Shown here piece after piece: positions 4,161-11,443 of a stretch of DNA of 58,974 nt (the stretch's first letter is position 1; the number at the start of each line of letters is the position of its first letter). The notes below the pieces were generated by a model. It was given only the letters and a program-made list of their open reading frames with translations, had not been told where the DNA came from and searched no databases. Where the stretch lies: positions 2,934 through 61,907 of the forward strand of contig CAZMNK010000013.1 of NCBI GenBank assembly GCA_964567625.1, written 5' to 3'. Both the position numbers and the translations under genes were made by a program. Source of the DNA: an uncultured Enterobacterales bacterium. GTDB taxonomy: Bacteria; Myxococcota_A; UBA796; CAJQPC01.

Positions 4161-5564
4161 CTACTTGTTCAGCACGTGAATCGCCTCGCCAAGGGCGGCC
4201 TTGGCGGCTTCCATCACGCTCTCCCCCAGGGTCGGGTGGGGGTGGATGGTCAGCCCGATGTCCTGGGCCTCTGCGTCCATCTCGATGGCCAGGGCACACT
4301 CGCTGATCAGGTCGCTGGCGTGGGCGCCGACAATGGTGACGCCCAGTACACGGTTGTCGTTGGCGTCCAGGACGACCTTGACGAAACCGTCGGTGTCGTT
4401 GGTGGTGAGGGAGCGGCCCACGGCGGCAAAGGGGACCTTGCCGACCTTGAGTTCGTGGCCACGGTCGCTGGCCTCGTGCTCCATCAGTCCGGCAGTGGCG
4501 ATCTCCGGGTCGGTGAACACCACGGCTGGCACAGTCCGGGCCTGGTTTTCGACGTTGTGGCCGGCGATGACCTCGGCGACGACCTCGCCCTCGTGGGTGG
4601 CCTTGTGGGCGAGCATGGGCTGGCCGGCCACATCGCCGATGGCGTAGAGCCCGGGCACGCTGGTCTTGCACTGCCGGTCGATTTTGATGAACCGGCCGTC
4701 CATCTCTACCCCCAGGTCCTCGAGTCCCAGGTTCTCGGTGTTCGGACGGCGACCGACCGTGACCAGGATCACGTCGGTCTCCAGGCTTTCGGTGCCCTTG
4801 GGGGTCTCGATGGTGACCACGGCCCCGTTCTCACCCTCTTCCCAGCCCAGCGCCTTGGACTTGAGCTTGATGTCGACCTTGTTCTTCTTGAGTTTGCGGG
4901 CGATGACCTTGACCACGTCCGGGTCGAATCCAGGCATGAGCTGGTCCATGAATTCGACCACCGTCACGTGGCTGCCAAACTTGTTCAGCACGCTGCCGAG
5001 CTCCAGGCCGATGTAGCCCCCGCCAATGACGACCACACGTTCGGGCAGGTCCTGGATGTCCAGGGCCCGGGTCGAGTCCATGATCCGGGGATCGGCGAAG
5101 CTGAAGCCGGGGATCTCGACCGGCCGGGAGCCCGTGGCCAGCACGATGTGGTCGGACTCGACTCGCACGGTGCCCTCGGCGGTCTCGACCTCCAGGGCCC
5201 CAGGCCCCACGAGCCTGGCGGTCCCGGACATCCGGTCCGCGCCATTGCCCTTCAGGAGTGCCTGGACCCCGTTGGTGAGCTTCTTCACCACGCTGCCCTT
5301 CCAGGCTTGCATCGTCGGTATGTCCAGGGTCGCCTCGCCGCTGACCTGGATGCCCATGGCTCCGGCCTTGCGGATCTCGTGCAGGCGCTTGCCGGCGGTG
5401 ATCAGGGCCTTTGACGGAATGCAGCCCACGTTCAGGCAGACGCCGCCCCAGTACTCCTTTTCGATGCAGAGGGTCTCGACCCCCAACTGTGCGAGGCGAA
5501 TGGCGCAGGGGTAGCCCCCGGGGCCTGCTCCGACCACGACGGCCTGGTACCGCTTGGTTTCCAT
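4161..5564 (-). CDS. lpdA: Dihydrolipoamide dehydrogenase (E3)
   Basis: GAGPGG FAD motif, GGVCLNVGCIPSK redox disulfide, GGGYIG NAD motif, HPHPTLGE. Confidence 0.96.
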   Translation of the reverse strand: METKRYQAVVVGAGPGGYPCAIRLAQLGVETLCIEKEYWGGVCLNVGCIPSKALITAGKRLHEIRKAGAMGIQVSGEATLDIPTMQAWKGSVVKKLTNGVQALLKGNGADRMSGTARLVGPGALEVETAEGTVRVESDHIVLATGSRPVEIPGFSFADPRIMDSTRALDIQDLPERVVVIGGGYIGLELGSVLNKFGSHVTVVEFMDQLMPGFDPDVVKVIARKLKKNKVDIKLKSKALGWEEGENGAVVTIETPKGTESLETDVILVTVGRRPNTENLGLEDLGVEMDGRFIKIDRQCKTSVPGLYAIGDVAGQPMLAHKATHEGEVVAEVIAGHNVENQARTVPAVVFTDPEIATAGLMEHEASDRGHELKVGKVPFAAVGRSLTTNDTDGFVKVVLDANDNRVLGVTIVGAHASDLISECALAIEMDAEAQDIGLTIHPHPTLGESVMEAAKAALGEAIHVLNK

Positions 5565-5585
5565 GACTTCTCCTGCTGTTCTGCT

Positions 5586-6278
5586 TCAGCCGACGCTGAG
5601 GCCGACGTCCCCGCTGGGATCGGTTTCGTTGAGTTTATTCCGGGTTCGCTCGAGGGGGTCCTCGCCGGGGGTGAGATGGGCTTCAATGAACCGGGGTCCT
5701 CCGGCTGCGCGGGCGTTGGAGACCGCGCTCAACACCTCACTGAGCAGGCCCCCGTCCACCTTGCGGGCCTGGATCCCAAAAGCCAGGGCGTGATGGCTCA
5801 AGGTTCCGGACAACTGCTCCGCGTAGGGAGCGTCTTGGCCCCTCTGCCATGCGTGGGCCAGGAAGATGACCCGCAGGTGGTGGAGGGCGGCGAAGTTCAG
5901 GGACTCGTGAAAGGCGCCGCAACTGGCGGAGCCCTCGCCCAGAAAACAGAGCACCGCGTCCTTGGGGTTGGCCATCGCCAGGCCGCAGGCGTGAAGCATG
6001 CGGGCAGCGGGGGAGGTGGTGACAGGTGCGACCCGCCAGGGCCGGGCGCCGGCGTGACCGTCCACCAGTCGCTCCGTTGGGCATCCTCGCAGGACCACCC
6101 CCAGCCGTTCCCGCAGCCCGGGGATGACCCAGTCGGTCTTCTCTATACCCAGAAATCCTCCAGCGATGACGGCCTCCAGGCCCTGGGCGGGCACCGGCAG
6201 CGGAAGGGTTCTCGCCGCCTGCAAGGCCTGGTCGGTCTCGCGGATCAGGCTCAGGGCATCCCACATCGACAGCTTCAC
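5586..6278 (-). CDS. Short, degenerate 2-oxoacid dehydrogenase E1 alpha-like protein
   Basis: GLEA, DWVIPGLRE, LCFLGEGSASCGAFHESLNFAA, VDGG, GGPRFIEA all match E1alpha. It is only 230 aa, the NN of the ThDP motif is replaced (FLAHAW) and the YR..H loop is absent. Confidence 0.75.
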   Translation of the reverse strand: MKLSMWDALSLIRETDQALQAARTLPLPVPAQGLEAVIAGGFLGIEKTDWVIPGLRERLGVVLRGCPTERLVDGHAGARPWRVAPVTTSPAARMLHACGLAMANPKDAVLCFLGEGSASCGAFHESLNFAALHHLRVIFLAHAWQRGQDAPYAEQLSGTLSHHALAFGIQARKVDGGLLSEVLSAVSNARAAGGPRFIEAHLTPGEDPLERTRNKLNETDPSGDVGLSVG

Positions 6279-7597
6279 GAGAGGTCCAGGATCAGTGTGG
6301 CGGGGGTCTCCAGGATCTTCTTCAGGGCGGCCACGAACCGGGCGCCTACGGCCCCATCGATGATCCGGTGATCAAAAGAGGGGGACAGGTACATCATGTC
6401 GCGAATGGCGATCTCGCCATCGACGACCATCGGCCGTTGGACGATGCGGTTCACGCCGAGGATGGCGACCTCGGGCACGTTGAGGATCGGGGTGGCGAAA
6501 ACGCCGCCGATGTTGCCGACGCTGGTCACGGTAAAGGTGCCACCCTGGAGCTCCTCCATGCGGACCTTGCCCGCCCGGGTGCGCTCGACCAGGTCCGCCA
6601 TCTCCGCTGCGATCTGCAGCACCGACTTCTGCTCGACGTTCTTGACGACCGGCACGAACAGGCCCTGGGGCGTGTCCGTGGCCACGCCGATGTTCACATC
6701 GCCCTTGACCACCAGGGTGAAGGGATCCTCCTCGAGGACCGCATTGACGTTGGGGAAGTCCCGGAAGACGAGGCTGGCGGCCTTCATCACAAAGGGGAGG
6801 TAGGTGAGTTTCACACCCCGGGAGGCAGCTTCCGTCTTGAGCTGGTTCCGAACCCGGACCAACTCGGTCACGTCGATCTCGTCCACATAGGTGAAATGCG
6901 GGGCGGTCTGCTTGGCGTGGACCATCTGCTCGGCGATCTTGCGGCGCAGGCCGATGATCTTGATGCGTTCTTCGGCGCCGCTGGGCACGGCATTGGCCTG
7001 GGGCACCGCGGGGGGCGCCTTGGGTGCGGGCGGCGGGGTGGCAGCGGCTGCCTGGGCTGCAGGAGAGGTCAGGGCCACCAGGTCCGCCCGGGTCACGCGG
7101 CCATCCTTGCCACTGCCAGTCACGGCACGCAGATCGATGCCCAGCTCCTTGGCCTGGCGGCGCACGGCTGGGCTGGCCAGGGCCTTGGAAGGCGCTGGTG
7201 GGACGGGGACAGGGGCCGGCTCGGCGGCTGCGAGTGGGGGCACTGCGACGGGGCCCGGAGGGGGCACGAGGGTGGGCTTTGTGGCTCCTCCGTTCTCCGG
7301 GGGTTCGGGGCGGGTCTTGGGCGCCATCGTGGACTTCGCGGGGGCCGCAGCGGCCTGGCCGTCGCCCGTGGCGATGTCGACCAGCGGGGCGTGAACGGCC
7401 ACCACATCGCCGGCGGCATGGTGCAGCTTGGCGATTCGACCGGACCTGGGAGTACTGATCTCCACGGTGGCCTTGTCGGTCATGATCTCGCAGACCGGCT
7501 GGTCTTCGTTGATCACGTCTCCTTCGGAGACCAGCCAACGAACGACTTCACCTTCGATGATGCCTTCGCCGATTTCGGGCAGTTTGAACTGGAACAT
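6275..7597 (-). CDS. Dihydrolipoamide acyltransferase (E2) of a 2-oxoacid dehydrogenase
   Basis: Lipoyl domain with MTDKA, Ala/Pro linker, peripheral subunit-binding domain (ASPAVRR..GSGKDGRV), catalytic DHRIIDG. Confidence 0.95.
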   Translation of the reverse strand: MFQFKLPEIGEGIIEGEVVRWLVSEGDVINEDQPVCEIMTDKATVEISTPRSGRIAKLHHAAGDVVAVHAPLVDIATGDGQAAAAPAKSTMAPKTRPEPPENGGATKPTLVPPPGPVAVPPLAAAEPAPVPVPPAPSKALASPAVRRQAKELGIDLRAVTGSGKDGRVTRADLVALTSPAAQAAAATPPPAPKAPPAVPQANAVPSGAEERIKIIGLRRKIAEQMVHAKQTAPHFTYVDEIDVTELVRVRNQLKTEAASRGVKLTYLPFVMKAASLVFRDFPNVNAVLEEDPFTLVVKGDVNIGVATDTPQGLFVPVVKNVEQKSVLQIAAEMADLVERTRAGKVRMEELQGGTFTVTSVGNIGGVFATPILNVPEVAILGVNRIVQRPMVVDGEIAIRDMMYLSPSFDHRIIDGAVGARFVAALKKILETPATLILDLS

Positions 7598-7609
7598 GAG
7601 GGAGGACTC

Positions 7610-8524
7610 CTAAAACTGAACGCTGCTCACCAGGGCAGCAGCGACCTGGTCCGGGTTGCCTGCTGCGACGGCAGGCGGGGACTCCAGGTAGAGAAAGGCG
7701 GCATCGGTCGTGGCTCTGATGAGCCGGTCTTCCAGGGTTTGATCGGAGGACTCCGATCCGACCACCAGGACGCGACCGGTACGACGGACGGACTTGGCGA
7801 GGGTGGCCAGGTCCAGGGGGGACAGGGAGCGGAGATCCAGGACCTCGGCCTTGTAGCCGTGGGGTTCGCAGGCCTCGGCAGCGGCGAGGGCGGTGGCCAC
7901 ACCGGCTCCCCAGGAGAGCAGGGTGATGTGGGCGCCACGACGGACGATGCGGGCGGAACCCAGGGGGACCGGGTGTTCGTTCACCGGTCCCTGCGTGGCG
8001 TAGAGGGCCATCGGCTCCAGGATCACGACCGGTCCCCGGTGGCGCACGGCGGATCGGAGCAGTCCGCCGGCATCCTGGGGGGTCGAAGGGCTTACCACCG
8101 CCAGTCCCTCGGTGCTGCTGAGCAGGCCGGCAACGCACGCTTCCTCCAGGGCCCCGACCGGGCCAAAGGGCAGGCGCAGGATCAGAGGCGCCACGAATTC
8201 GCCACGGGTTCGCCGGGCCAGGGTGCTGATCTCCCCCAGGAGCTGGTCCAGGGCCCCGTGCACCCGTCCGGCAGAGGGCAATTCCACGATGGGAATCCGA
8301 CCGCCCATCGCCAGGCCTGCCGCCACGCCGAGCAGTCCGGATTCGCTGAGAGGCGTCTGGATCACCCGTTCCGGTCCGTAGGCAGCCCTCAGTCCCTCGC
8401 AGGTCCCGGCCACGCCACCCAGCGTGTCGACGTTCTCCCCCAACAGGAGGATGTCCGGCTCCTGGAGCATGAGCTCTTCAAGGGTGTCTCGGATGGCTCG
8501 GGCCATCGTGATGGAGGTGCTCAC
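7610..8524 (-). CDS. Degenerate 2-oxoacid dehydrogenase E1 beta-like protein
   Basis: LLGENV..GGV, RVIQTPLSE, PSTPQDA.GLL, LDLRSLSPLD, RTGRVLVV match E1beta. EIQF is replaced by ELPS and the HS catalytic motif is missing. Confidence 0.85.
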   Translation of the reverse strand: MSTSITMARAIRDTLEELMLQEPDILLLGENVDTLGGVAGTCEGLRAAYGPERVIQTPLSESGLLGVAAGLAMGGRIPIVELPSAGRVHGALDQLLGEISTLARRTRGEFVAPLILRLPFGPVGALEEACVAGLLSSTEGLAVVSPSTPQDAGGLLRSAVRHRGPVVILEPMALYATQGPVNEHPVPLGSARIVRRGAHITLLSWGAGVATALAAAEACEPHGYKAEVLDLRSLSPLDLATLAKSVRRTGRVLVVGSESSDQTLEDRLIRATTDAAFLYLESPPAVAAGNPDQVAAALVSSVQF

Positions 8525-9429
8525 AGGGTCAGCTCCTCTGCAGGCGTTTGCCCGTGCTGCAGGAACTCGCGGATGTAGTACTCCCCGGCCTTGTAGCTCG
8601 AGCGAACCAGCGGGCCCGAGGCCACCACTTCAAAGCCCATGGTCCTGGCTTCCTCTTTCCATTCGTCGAAGCGCTCGGGATCGATGTAGGCATCGACCTT
8701 GAGATGCTTTGCGGTGGGCTGCAGGTACTGGCCGAGAGTCAGAAAGGAGACACCGACGTCACGCAGATCTCGCATGCACTGGCGGACCTCTTCCGTGGTC
8801 TCGCCACACCCCACCATGATCGAGGACTTGGTGTGGTGGGTCGGGCGGCGCTGTTTCAGCCAGGCGAGCACGTCCAGGCTCTGCCGGTAGCCGGCCCTGG
8901 GATCCCGGACGGTTGGGGTCAGCCGTTCCACGGTCTCGATGTTGTGGGCGATGACGGTCGGGTTGGCGGCGACGATGTGTTCCAGCAGGTCTGTACGGCC
9001 CTGGAAGTCCGGGATGAGCACTTCGACCAGGGTCTTCGGGGCGGCCTGGTGGATCGCCCGAATGCAGGTGGCGTAGTGGTCGGCCCCCTGGAGCGGAAGT
9101 TCATCGCGGTTCACCGAGGTGACCACCACGTAGTCCAGGTCCAACTCCCGGATGGTCTGGGCCAGGTTCGTCGGCTCGTCGGGATCCAGGGGGGCGCCAG
9201 CCCGACGGGTGTTCACCGCGCAGAAGCGGCAGCCGCGGGTGCAGATGTCACCCATGACCATGAACGTGGCGGTTCCGCCACCCCAGCACTCCCCGATGTT
9301 GGGGCAACGGGCTTCCTCGCACACGGTGTGCAGGTTCAACTCGCGGGCTCGAGCCTTGATCCGCGCGTAGCGGGCCTGGCGCTCGCCGGACGGCTGCCGA
9401 ACCTTGATCCAGGGGGGCTTGCGACCCAA
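8521..9429 (-). CDS. lipA: Lipoyl synthase
   Basis: KPPWIK, CEEARCPNIGEC, CTRGCRFC, PLVRSSY. TTG start at 9429 has GGAGG upstream; the 558-aa ORF extension is antisense to the peroxiredoxin gene. Confidence 0.95.
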   Translation of the reverse strand: MGRKPPWIKVRQPSGERQARYARIKARARELNLHTVCEEARCPNIGECWGGGTATFMVMGDICTRGCRFCAVNTRRAGAPLDPDEPTNLAQTIRELDLDYVVVTSVNRDELPLQGADHYATCIRAIHQAAPKTLVEVLIPDFQGRTDLLEHIVAANPTVIAHNIETVERLTPTVRDPRAGYRQSLDVLAWLKQRRPTHHTKSSIMVGCGETTEEVRQCMRDLRDVGVSFLTLGQYLQPTAKHLKVDAYIDPERFDEWKEEARTMGFEVVASGPLVRSSYKAGEYYIREFLQHGQTPAEELTL

Positions 9430-9507
9430 GATGCGTGCCTCCCGTTGGGGGAGATTCTCGTAACCGACGCACTGGGGGTGCTCCAGGGAGGGGGTTAGGC
9501 TCATGCC

Positions 9508-10038
9508 ATGTCGCAACGAAGAACCCCCCCCTCGGTGGGCCAGGCAGCACCTTCCTTCAGCCTGCTGGATCAGCACGGTCAGCGGCACCGGCTCGTCGAC
9601 TATGACGGCCGGGCCCTGGTGCTCTGGTTCTACCCCAAGGACTTCACCAAGGGTTGAACGATCGAAGCTCGCGGGTTCCGCGAGATCTGGGATCAGTGCC
9701 GGAGCCACGGGGTTGCAGTGCTGGGAATCAGCCTGGACTCTGCACAGCGCCACAAGGCCTTTGCCGAGTCTCTGGACGTTTCCTACCCACTGCTGGCGGA
9801 CACCCGGGGCGAGATGGCGCGGGCCTACCGGGTCAAGCGAGGCCTTGGCCCGTTGAGCGTGGCGGCACGGAAGACCTTTCTGGTAGGGCCGGATCACTGC
9901 GTGCTCAAGCGGTGGGACGAGGTGGACGTCTATGCCCACCACACCCAGGTGCTGGTCGCCCTGTCCGAGGCGGGCCTGCTCGGCGAGGAGAACATCCCGG
10001 TTCGCGGGCTGCGGAAGAACAAGCCGAAGTCGGACTGA
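9508..10038 (+). CDS. bcp: BCP/PrxQ-type peroxiredoxin containing selenocysteine (U50)
   Basis: Continuous frame from ATG 9508: ...VGQAAPSFSLLDQHG...LVLWFYPKDFTKG-TGA(9655-9657)-TIEARGFRE...VLGISLDS...YPLLAD...RKTFLVG. The TGA occupies the Cys of PxxxTxxC. Confidence 0.9.
9668..9684 (+). promoter_or_regulatory. Putative bacterial SECIS element
   Basis: Perfect 7-bp hairpin CTCGCGG-GTT-CCGCGAG starting 10 nt after the in-frame TGA. The apical loop begins with G, 17 nt from the TGA. Confidence 0.8.
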
Positions 10039-10131
10039 AGCGGCTGTGAACGGCCCCCAAACCCCCTGAAGCGCGAGGCTTCGGGCGGGAGAGCCCGTGG
10101 TCCATGGCGTTGACGGCACGTCCTCACGAGG

Positions 10132-10160
10132 AAAAAAGGGTGGAATTTCCACCTTTTTTT
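10132..10160. terminator. Near-perfect palindrome; possible bidirectional intrinsic terminator or operator
   Basis: AAAAAAGGGTGGAA-T-TTCCACCTTTTTTT: 14-bp arms with one G:T, A-tract on the left and T-tract on the right. Confidence 0.5.
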
Positions 10161-10167
10161 GATCCTG

Positions 10168-10242
10168 ATGGGAGAAAACACCACCATAGAGCGCCATGAC
10201 GTGGTATTAAATCTCCCATGATGGTAGAAAACACACCATCAT
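10168..10242. promoter_or_regulatory. AT-rich operator-like repeat array upstream of the regulator gene
   Basis: Direct repeats ATGGGAGAAAACACCACCAT (10168-10187) and ATGGTAGAAAACACACCAT (10221-10239); inverted repeats ATGGGAGA/TCTCCCAT and ATGATGGT/ACCATCAT, the latter overlapping the ATG at 10241. Confidence 0.55.
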
Positions 10243-11443
10243 GAGTACCCTCGCCGACGCCGTCTCCGTCTTCCGCGGAAACCCCTTCACAGACGACGCC
10301 GTCGCATCCCGTGCCCGCCTGGGCCGACTCCTCCTGAAACCACCTGCCTCATGGGCGTTCCGCGGCGCCCGGCAGGGGGAGGTTCCCTACGGTCTCGAGG
10401 ACCTGGTCCTGGCCATCGCCCACGCCCGGGCTTGCGCTCTGGTGGATCCCAGGGGAGTGTTGGACGAGGCCGTGGTTCCAGACACCGTGATGGCGGAATT
10501 GCCCCGGTCGCGCCTGGACTACACGCGAATCGCGCTGGCCGCCAGTCGCTGCTTTCGCGCCCTCCAGGGCTTTCCGGGTCGGTCCCCCGCCATGGCTCGG
10601 GTGCGGCGACAGGCCTGGACCCGGGCCCTGGGCAGTTCTCTTGTGGAGGCCCTGGACACGGAATCCCTGCGACGGGCTCAGCCCCTGGTGCTCTGCGGGG
10701 AACCGGGGACCGGTCGCCGGGCCCTGGCCCTGGCCATGCTCTCGGGGTTGCCGGCGCCCTCGGGCCGCACTCCCTGGACCGGTCCGACGTTGGCCCCCTG
10801 GACCCCCGCCGGGGTTCCCTCGCCGGCCGGAGGGTTGGTGGTGGAGGGACTGGCCAGTCGGGGGCCAGAGGAGATTCGGATGCTCCGTACAGCGCTGGGC
10901 CAGCCTGGCACGGCACGGTTGGCCTTTGTCTGTGGTCCATGGGAACTGGTGGCACCGGTTCTGCCGCCCGACCTGGTGGCGCGTCTGGCGCCCCTGCGGC
11001 TGGCCATTGCGCCACTGCGGGACCGGCCCGAGGACCTGGAAGCCCAGGTTCTCGCTCGACTGGTGACCTGGGGGCCACAGTTGCGGTCGAGTGGCGCACC
11101 CGGTCTGGACTTCGACCGGGTGCTCCGGTGGTTCTCGGGGCCAGAGGCCCTTCAACACGGCTGGCCGGGCAACCAGGATGAGCTGGAGACCGCGGTCCGT
11201 GCCCTGGTATTGGGGACCTCCCCCAGCTTGCCGACGGCGGAGAGGGCCGAGACCGAGGCGCCCTCAAAGGACCTTCCAGCCGGACTCGCTGGGGGGACCT
11301 GGAGCGATCGGCAGGTTCGGGACTGGTACCTCAAGCGGGTCCACGAACGGACAGGTCGGGTCGGGAAGACGGCCAGCGTCCTGGGACTGGATCGGGCCAC
11401 GGTGAGACTTCGCCTCCGGGAAACCGGTTCGGAGGTTTCGTGA
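10241..11443 (+). CDS. Degenerate sigma54-activator-like (AAA+) regulator with Fis-type HTH
   Basis: GRSPAMARVR, LCGEPGTGR, PLRDRPEDL, HGWPGNQDELE, C-terminal KTASVLGLDRATV. No GAFTGA and no recognisable Walker B DE. Confidence 0.7.
   Translation: MSTLADAVSVFRGNPFTDDAVASRARLGRLLLKPPASWAFRGARQGEVPYGLEDLVLAIAHARACALVDPRGVLDEAVVPDTVMAELPRSRLDYTRIALAASRCFRALQGFPGRSPAMARVRRQAWTRALGSSLVEALDTESLRRAQPLVLCGEPGTGRRALALAMLSGLPAPSGRTPWTGPTLAPWTPAGVPSPAGGLVVEGLASRGPEEIRMLRTALGQPGTARLAFVCGPWELVAPVLPPDLVARLAPLRLAIAPLRDRPEDLEAQVLARLVTWGPQLRSSGAPGLDFDRVLRWFSGPEALQHGWPGNQDELETAVRALVLGTSPSLPTAERAETEAPSKDLPAGLAGGTWSDRQVRDWYLKRVHERTGRVGKTASVLGLDRATVRLRLRETGSEVS

Follow-up and report, generated by a model that had tools for sequence, protein, structure and literature searches.

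This locus raises the question of whether a peroxiredoxin reading frame that is interrupted once by an in-frame TGA encodes a selenoprotein or merely the remains of a gene. It lies in a window of 58,974 nucleotides, the whole stretch of DNA that was analyzed. The frame starts with an ATG at 9508 and ends with a terminal TGA at 10036-10038; its sole interruption is the TGA at 9655-9657, and it contains no other stop and no frameshift. With this TGA read as U, the frame yields a single protein of 176 residues containing the segment FYPKDFTKGU-TIEARGFRE, and its initiator methionine aligns with the methionine of its orthologues. The program-made list of open reading frames contains only two pieces of it, 9508..9657 (49 aa) and 9718..10038 (106 aa, with a GTG start), and public protein sets hold nothing but tails of 104-111 aa (P0002, P0003, P0004 and P0006). 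A preliminary description, made from the letters alone, had recognized one BCP-type peroxiredoxin frame between 9508 and 10038 with an internal TGA separating FYPKDFTKG from TIE, and had predicted that annotation would miss the gene and keep a 106-aa tail; the sequence and its translation, the list of reading frames and the public tails all agree with that account. The reading argued for here, to which we give a probability of roughly 90%, is that 9508-10038 is one selenoprotein gene of the BCP/PrxQ type, split in two by gene callers, with selenocysteine (Sec) at the peroxidatic residue. The features of the locus are collected in Table 1.

Table 1. Coordinates of the Sec peroxiredoxin candidate and its neighboring features in the window.
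Feature	Position	Strand	Basis or remark
E3-type disulfide reductase / flavoprotein	5564..4161	-	Pfam
E1alpha-like ORF, short, 230 aa	6278..5586	-	Pfam, partial E1_dh match
E2	7597..6275	-	Pfam
E1beta	8524..7610	-	Pfam
lipA	9504..8521	-	TIGR00510, 394 bits
Probable Sec-containing BCP/PrxQ peroxiredoxin CDS	9508..10038	+	176 residues + terminal TGA
Active-site motif P43-K-D-F-T47-K-G-U50 (PxxxTxxU)	9634..9657	+	Aligned with PKDxTPGC of Cys homologues
UGA codon predicted to be read as selenocysteine, U50, peroxidatic residue	9655..9657	+	TGA in all orthologues
Putative SECIS upper stem-loop, 7-bp stem, loop GUU	9668..9684	+	Fold -10.6 kcal/mol, bSECIS criteria
R121 codon	9868..9870	+	Invariant in alignments A1 (17 sequences) and A3 (69 sequences)
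C-terminal extension, clade-specific, basic tail, ~residues 154-176	9967..10035	+	Sec orthologues only, absent from Cys homologues
Hairpin GGTGGAAATTCCACC between A-run and T-run, ~100 nt past stop	10139..10160	.	Inverted repeat I1; reported on - strand

The read-through protein belongs to the AhpC/TSA fold and, within it, to the BCP/PrxQ subfamily. Residues 10-132 match the Pfam AhpC-TSA model (PF00578) with an E-value of 1.8e-33 and 115.5 bits against a cut-off of 26. Within NCBIfam the protein scores highest against PrxQ (113.9 bits) and BCP (88.1 bits), ahead of AhpC, Tpx and PrxU; both scores lie under the equivalog cut-offs of 260 and 140, so the protein is not an equivalog of either model. 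An identity with PrxU (NF040737, 54.1 bits against a cut-off of 270) or with the thiol peroxidase Prx-SUH (NF045827, 16.9 bits against 298) was considered and rejected, since both scores are far beneath the cut-offs. The eleven best matches in a PDB sequence search are BCP-type or unnamed peroxiredoxins. An AlphaFold2 model built on a 69-row alignment has a mean pLDDT of 92.2 and a pTM of 0.86, with uncertainty confined to the last ~18 residues, and its top Foldseek matches are BCP/PrxQ structures (target-normalized TM 0.83-0.89), followed by 1-Cys AhpE. The C-terminal extension of the Sec clade follows a pattern like LLGE-x-N-[IV]-P-V-RGLRKKKK and ends in a basic run; model confidence there is low from about residue 160.

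The active-site residues P43, T47 and R121 are all present, and we take R121 to be the conserved catalytic arginine of peroxiredoxins. According to a passage in PMC8945050, the peroxidatic motif of BCP/PrxQ proteins is Pxxx(T/S)xxC. Alignment with Cys homologues places the TGA at the catalytic Cys of PxxxTxxC, where the preliminary description had put it.

A six-frame search covered 41 genomes, namely the window's own and 40 relatives. Orthologues (67-71% identity) were found only in the window's genome and in three genomes of the same genus. The peroxidatic codon is TGA in all four of these genome orthologues, one of which is split over two contigs, and is a Cys codon in every one of the 16 distant genome homologues examined (32-42% identity), which mostly read ..TPGC..(x4)C. 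The pairing of Cys with TGA among homologues, which the preliminary description had named as a check, is thus borne out. A scan of one genome per species returned the same three relatives together with L044, a 40%-identical sequence from another phylum that also has U at this position. A metagenome scan with the orthologue alignment gave 61 loci, in which the codon is TGA in 25, Cys in 35 and unalignable in one; because selection relied on two peptide patterns of the C-terminal half, the loci do not form a random sample. Two of the loci, L046 and L047, specify the same protein as the third relative (G003), and the metagenome scan added L048, a fifth distinct orthologue, again with TGA. Overall, five distinct orthologue sequences share 66-74% identity, with the TGA and the hairpin described below in every one. 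The TGA forms comprise TKGU, which is the type of the window's clade, a large TPGUTHEAK group, a single TPGUTVEAS and a single TPGUTIQGK. As described in a passage of PMC13188914, the Cys/Sec-pair method asks for TGA-bearing homologues in other organisms, and such homologues do occur here. The window's own orthologues are not independent, all being close kin.

The genome of the window (6.03 Mb in 303 contigs, 96.7% complete) holds the complete decoding set that the preliminary description had proposed to look for. A tRNA-Sec was found at 67.8 bits against a cut-off of 47, and ARAGORN calls it tRNA-SeC with the anticodon tca; selA (495 bits), selB (287 bits) and selD (391 bits) accompany it, and all four score above their curated cut-offs. 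The selD gene (contig C110:5573-6499, plus strand; nt 1531 of locus L018) itself has an in-frame TGA in GGGUGCK, presumably the usual Sec form of the SelD motif, and its SECIS has a GGG loop at +20 to +22. On that identity of the motif, selD supplies a case of UGA decoding from within the genome.

In nine of the genome's 30 AhpC/TSA-family matches there is a single in-frame TGA, which always falls on a redox-motif position (three TxxU, five UxxC-like and one UPVA), and the organism appears to be rich in thioredoxin-fold selenoproteins. Two of these are further TxxU-type Sec peroxiredoxin paralogues, located at C121:15574-15924 on the plus strand (about 757-1218 of locus L107) and at C56:9293-9646 on the minus strand. 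One paralogue reads FYPLADTPGU-TEEGC and, unlike the window's gene, has a Cys at +5, so it could form a selenenyl-sulfide; the other reads WTDCU-TEQGR. Both possess the hairpin core GCGG-GUA-CCGC, which shares its reading frame with the window's GCGG-GUU-CCGC and has its loop at +20.

Ten bases (9658-9667) lie between the TGA and a hairpin composed of CTCGCGG (9668-9674), GTT (9675-9677) and CCGCGAG (9678-9684), and the sequence thereby confirms the perfect hairpin with a G-first loop that had been reported ten nucleotides past the codon. These 17 nt fold at -10.6 kcal/mol, a value equalled by one of 200 shuffles. The 50-nt stretch taken overall is not special for GC-rich DNA, with a z of -1.0 and 36 of 200 shuffles as good. 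The bSECIS criteria, as set out in the legend to Fig. 2 of PMC13188914, comprise a loop of 3-9 nt that has a G in its first two positions, as a rule with G or U after it, an upper stem of 4-16 bp, a UGA-to-loop distance of 16-37 nt and an MFE of at most -7.5 kcal/mol. The window's hairpin falls within all the criteria given there, with a GUU loop of 3 nt, 7 bp, a spacing of 17 nt and the fold energy stated above, which settles in its favor the check for a bacterial SECIS that the preliminary description had proposed. Its loop starts at +20 from the U of the UGA, the same position as in this genome's selD. An Rfam scan of 9450-10250 with E-values up to 10 gave chance matches only (E > 2, all well short of the gathering scores), and hence no curated SECIS family fits.

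None of the 17 nt of the hairpin differs among the five distinct orthologue sequences, and consequently no compensatory change can be counted. Its six codons are identical in four of four sequences, compared with 31 of 86 other degenerate codons for conserved residues. Among the invariant codons is GCT, a T-ending alanine codon whose T pairs with the A of GAG; T-ending alanine codons are rare in GC-rich genomes. The eight codons directly 5' of the TGA (FYPKDFTK) are likewise identical in the first four sequences, with L048 differing at the Pro codon, and the conservation of the hairpin might stem in part from the conserved peptide ARGFRE and from codon bias. The stem is 9 bp long in L023 and L046 and 7 bp long in the window and L024, a difference that comes from the flanking codons (GAG/CTC versus GAA/ATC). 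This split was considered as covariation support and rejected, as it fits one event on the tree and proves nothing.

Genome-wide counts place the hairpin against its background. Hairpins of five or more pairs, with three or more G-C pairs among them and a 3-4 nt loop that begins with G and is located at +19 to +21, were found at six of ten sites made up of the nine AhpC/TSA sites and selD, versus 1,690 of 139,708 TGAs (1.2%) and 2,345 of 198,805 TGCs (1.2%) in the whole genome; the enrichment at Sec sites is overstated, since this definition was chosen after the sites had been seen. A G-first hairpin as strong as the window's, with its loop at +19 to +21, occurs at 39 of all 139,708 TGAs (0.028%), a rarity that, together with the shuffling result for the 17 nt, excludes chance. 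The hairpin is present in four of four distinct sequences of the window's clade versus one of 49 distinct Cys-form loci, and it therefore tracks the TGA and not the peptide. Fold energy 3' of the codon separates the two forms weakly, with means of -12.0 kcal/mol for TGA forms and -10.4 kcal/mol for Cys forms (one-sided p 0.019). A pre-adaptation, in which the BCP peptide [C/R]-G-F-R would encode a ready hairpin and ease the change from Cys to Sec, was rejected because the hairpin occurs in one of 49 Cys-form loci, against a background of ~1.2%.

Hairpins of the TPGUTHEAK Sec clade are placed further downstream than the window's. The TPGUTHEAK loci L066, L072, L073, L082, L088, L090 and L098 have the hairpin GGACTTCC..GGAAGTC, of which the stem is kept and the loops vary (AGGAGC, AGGAGT, AGGCTT and AGGCTG); other members of that clade fold differently. 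The window's genome lends itself well to the description of a lineage-specific SECIS with a G-first loop of 3-4 nt at +20.

These observations bear on the possibility of a selenium-free readthrough of the UGA, in which a near-cognate Cys or Trp tRNA, or a changed code, would give an ordinary Cys or Trp protein. Homologues do have Cys at this position, and the residue inserted is not decidable from the sequence alone. However, the peroxiredoxin gene and all its orthologues terminate in TGA, so TGA is otherwise a stop in this organism, and a complete Sec machinery is present alongside nine AhpC/TSA-family genes and selD with TGA at redox-motif positions. With a SECIS within the published criteria directly 3' of the codon as well, selenium-free readthrough is very unlikely.

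Selection was estimated from a codon alignment of the four genome orthologues, for which dS is ~0.5-1.0. Upstream of the TGA, dN/dS is 0.23-0.28 (3 pairs, as the split gene lacks the upstream part), and downstream it is 0.26-0.52 (6 pairs). Values of 0.23-0.52 on both sides indicate that both halves are kept as protein in one frame. Relaxed selection 3' of the TGA, which the preliminary description had given as a sign against its own reading, was looked for, and purifying selection was found instead. With both halves under such selection, a recent pseudogene is excluded and a separately made tail is disfavored.

The pseudogene reading supposes that a nonsense change of TGC or TGT to TGA struck the catalytic Cys of a BCP gene, leaving it dead, and that the hairpin is a GC-rich coincidence. 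Such a change takes one base, GC-rich DNA folds readily (z -1.0) and gene callers give the tail only. Nevertheless, the TGA stands in five distinct orthologue sequences at dS ~0.5-1.0 with a downstream dN/dS of 0.26-0.52, further stops and frameshifts are absent, the invariant hairpin sits at selD's spacing and the genome decodes Sec, all of which leaves a dead gene with a very low probability. Still more improbable is that translation ends at the UGA and that a 106-aa protein is made separately from the GTG at 9718: the open reading frame 9718..10038 exists and public protein sets hold such tails (the same P0002, P0003, P0004 and P0006), but the tail has neither the active-site motif nor the opening strands and helix of the fold, in-frame conservation extends over the codons that separate the TGA from 9718, and the two halves are under the same purifying selection in one frame.

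The stretch was found in marine, seawater and hydrothermal-vent metagenome runs from 15 studies, and among the runs listed with it there is no RNA run. None of the runs X4, X6, X7 and X8 belongs to the study that may be the source, and X4 and X6 represent two different studies. Contigs of X4 and X6 cover 9400-9697 and 9400-9815 with 0 differences across the TGA and hairpin; in X7 and X8, no contig over the TGA was found. A sequencing or assembly error at the Cys codon, which the preliminary description had proposed to recognize by TGC or TGT in place of TGA and to which an assembly in 303 contigs might lend itself, has a negligible probability, given that contigs from two other studies keep the TGA and that three other genomes and further metagenome contigs have the same one. 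The decoding machinery, the conserved TGA, the purifying selection and the bSECIS hairpin all favor the earlier proposal that the codon is Sec, and the insertion of Sec at U50 is predicted on these sequence-based grounds.

The relationship of Sec and Cys forms was examined by maximum likelihood with a quick method, on 76 distinct rows of which 27 are U and 49 are C; long branches were flagged in the tree. Three duplicates, one row with an upstream stop, the partial or redundant L025, L042, L043 and L045, and L105 were left out. The five U rows of the window's clade group together on a long branch (SH-aLRT 99), apart from a 19-row U clade (SH-aLRT 100). At least four changes between U and C are needed on this tree, and the strongly supported branches alone force one. 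An independent origin of Sec in the window's clade was considered and is not upheld, since the supported branches force only one change and a single origin fits. Cys and Sec forms are interspersed on the family tree, and the window's clade adds one lineage.

In the proposed mechanism, SelB carrying Sec-tRNA(Sec) would bind the hairpin (9668-9684, with its GUU loop 17 nt past the UGA), and the UGA at 9655-9657 would then be decoded as Sec and not as a stop. The resulting selenolate, held in the usual pocket of Pro, Thr and Arg (P43, T47 and R121), would attack peroxide and become a selenenic acid. The oxidized Sec would then be reduced by an outside thiol, most likely thioredoxin or glutathione/glutaredoxin, as in 1-Cys BCPs. 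Peroxidase activity of the Sec protein is accordingly a prediction of this scheme.

The +5 position, which holds the resolving Cys in 2-Cys BCPs, is R55 in the window's protein, and no CxxxxC is found. C64 occurs in two orthologues and C131 in one, and L023, L046 and L048, which make up three of the five distinct orthologue sequences, are without any Cys. No Cys is thus conserved in the clade, so Sec is its only conserved redox residue and, once oxidized, would need an external reductant. The nearest full-length Cys homologue, P0005 (49% identity), reads GCTIEARGF and also lacks the +5 Cys, suggesting that the loss of the resolving Cys is probably older than the Sec form. The preliminary description had remarked on the missing CxxxxC and had called the recycling route unclear for that reason. 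The absence stands and is ordinary, because most prokaryotic BCPs, according to a passage in PMC8945050, are without a resolving Cys.

PMC8945050 also describes one 1-Cys BCP, that of Burkholderia cenocepacia (Clarke et al. 2010), for which thioredoxin serves as a direct reductant and GSH/Grx serves better. The Burkholderia cenocepacia protein resembles the window's in having no resolving Cys, and its direct reduction is the mechanism proposed here; it differs in using Cys and not Sec and is only a distant relation. By this analogy, the reductant of the window's protein is most likely thioredoxin or GSH/Grx.

The peroxiredoxin gene stands head to head with a lipoate-dependent 2-oxoacid dehydrogenase cluster (4161-9504, minus strand). 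If lipA starts at 9504, the two start codons are 3 nt apart. An antisense ORF at 8521..10197 that overlaps the peroxiredoxin is the lipA frame extended upstream, and its domain matches are confined to residues 252-478. The head-to-head order is found at all four orthologue loci with upstream sequence, in this genus only. Adjacency to lipA or E1beta was found at none of 75 other BCP loci, and a general link of BCP to either gene was therefore rejected; the conserved arrangement of peroxiredoxin and lipA may be mere shared descent.

Peroxidases can be recycled through the lipoyl groups of E2 together with E3, as in the Lpd-DlaT-AhpD-AhpC relay of Mycobacterium tuberculosis and in lipoyl-dependent Ohr. 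The window resembles the mycobacterial relay in that the predicted Sec peroxiredoxin adjoins lipA-E1beta-E2-E1alpha-like-E3-like genes, and differs from it in that no AhpD-like adaptor lies beside the gene; the likeness is one of gene adjacency alone. Recycling of the Sec by dihydrolipoyl groups of the head-to-head 2-oxoacid dehydrogenase complex, and not by thioredoxin, is unlikely. If true, it would be a selenium-based counterpart of the mycobacterial Lpd/DlaT-linked peroxidase relay that works without an AhpD adaptor.

On the other side of the gene, the GGTGGAAATTCCACC hairpin is probably a bidirectional intrinsic terminator that ends the transcript. Beyond it are two copies of TGATGG[G/T]AGAAAACAC, at 10166-10181 and 10219-10234, 53 nt apart within an AT-rich spacer, and these repeats may be an operator pair. 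An ORF just past the repeats (10241-11443) has no Pfam match and a faint likeness to the C-terminal part of sigma-54-type activators. The distance from the peroxiredoxin stop to the homologue of this ORF is ~1.1-1.3 kb in L023 and L046 versus ~200 nt in the window; either an additional gene seems to be present at this place in these relatives, or one seems to have been lost from the window.

Selenocysteine peroxiredoxins are known from earlier catalogues, one of which refers to COG1225, which we take to be the Bcp-type COG. Catalogue entries for TxxU Sec peroxiredoxins (COG1225) go back to the 2005 Sargasso Sea survey (PMC1088965), Table 1 of a 2006 survey counts 12 Sec peroxiredoxin genes and five Cys-to-Sec events (PMC1794560), and the listing in a 2026 review includes Prx (PF00578, TxxU) with a conserved PxxxTxxU motif (PMC13188914). 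On these entries, peroxiredoxins whose peroxidatic residue is Sec (TxxU) form an established bacterial family, and an abundant one, and the novelty was overrated in the preliminary description. A look through the literature on selenocysteine and PrxQ gave no bacterial Sec-PrxQ by title among the papers listed; one may be in print all the same, since the catalogues say only 'Prx'.

The window's gene adds to this known family, its comparison with catalogued members being made by their descriptions only. It shares with them the AhpC/TSA fold, the replacement of the peroxidatic Cys by Sec, and a SECIS that follows shortly after within the coding region. In contrast to the usual TPGC/U, the window's clade reads FTKGU-TIEAR; it also lies on a long branch, has a basic C-terminal extension and conserves no Cys. 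PrxU of Eubacterium acidaminophilum, reportedly described as a Sec peroxiredoxin by Sohling et al. in 2001, is likewise a bacterial peroxiredoxin with Sec at the peroxidatic site, but it belongs to another subfamily: the window's protein scores 54.1 bits against the 270 required for PrxU and is nearest to BCP/PrxQ.

The gene opens no new question, and it is a clean example of a peroxiredoxin with Sec as its sole conserved redox residue. What is predicted to be a working antioxidant enzyme is recorded publicly as a fragment of 104-111 aa, and automatic pipelines will keep truncating it because the public records are fragments and no NCBIfam model reaches its cut-off. The selenoprotein-rich genome that carries it, in which 9 of 30 AhpC/TSA matches have an in-frame TGA, is a useful training case for selenoprotein finders.
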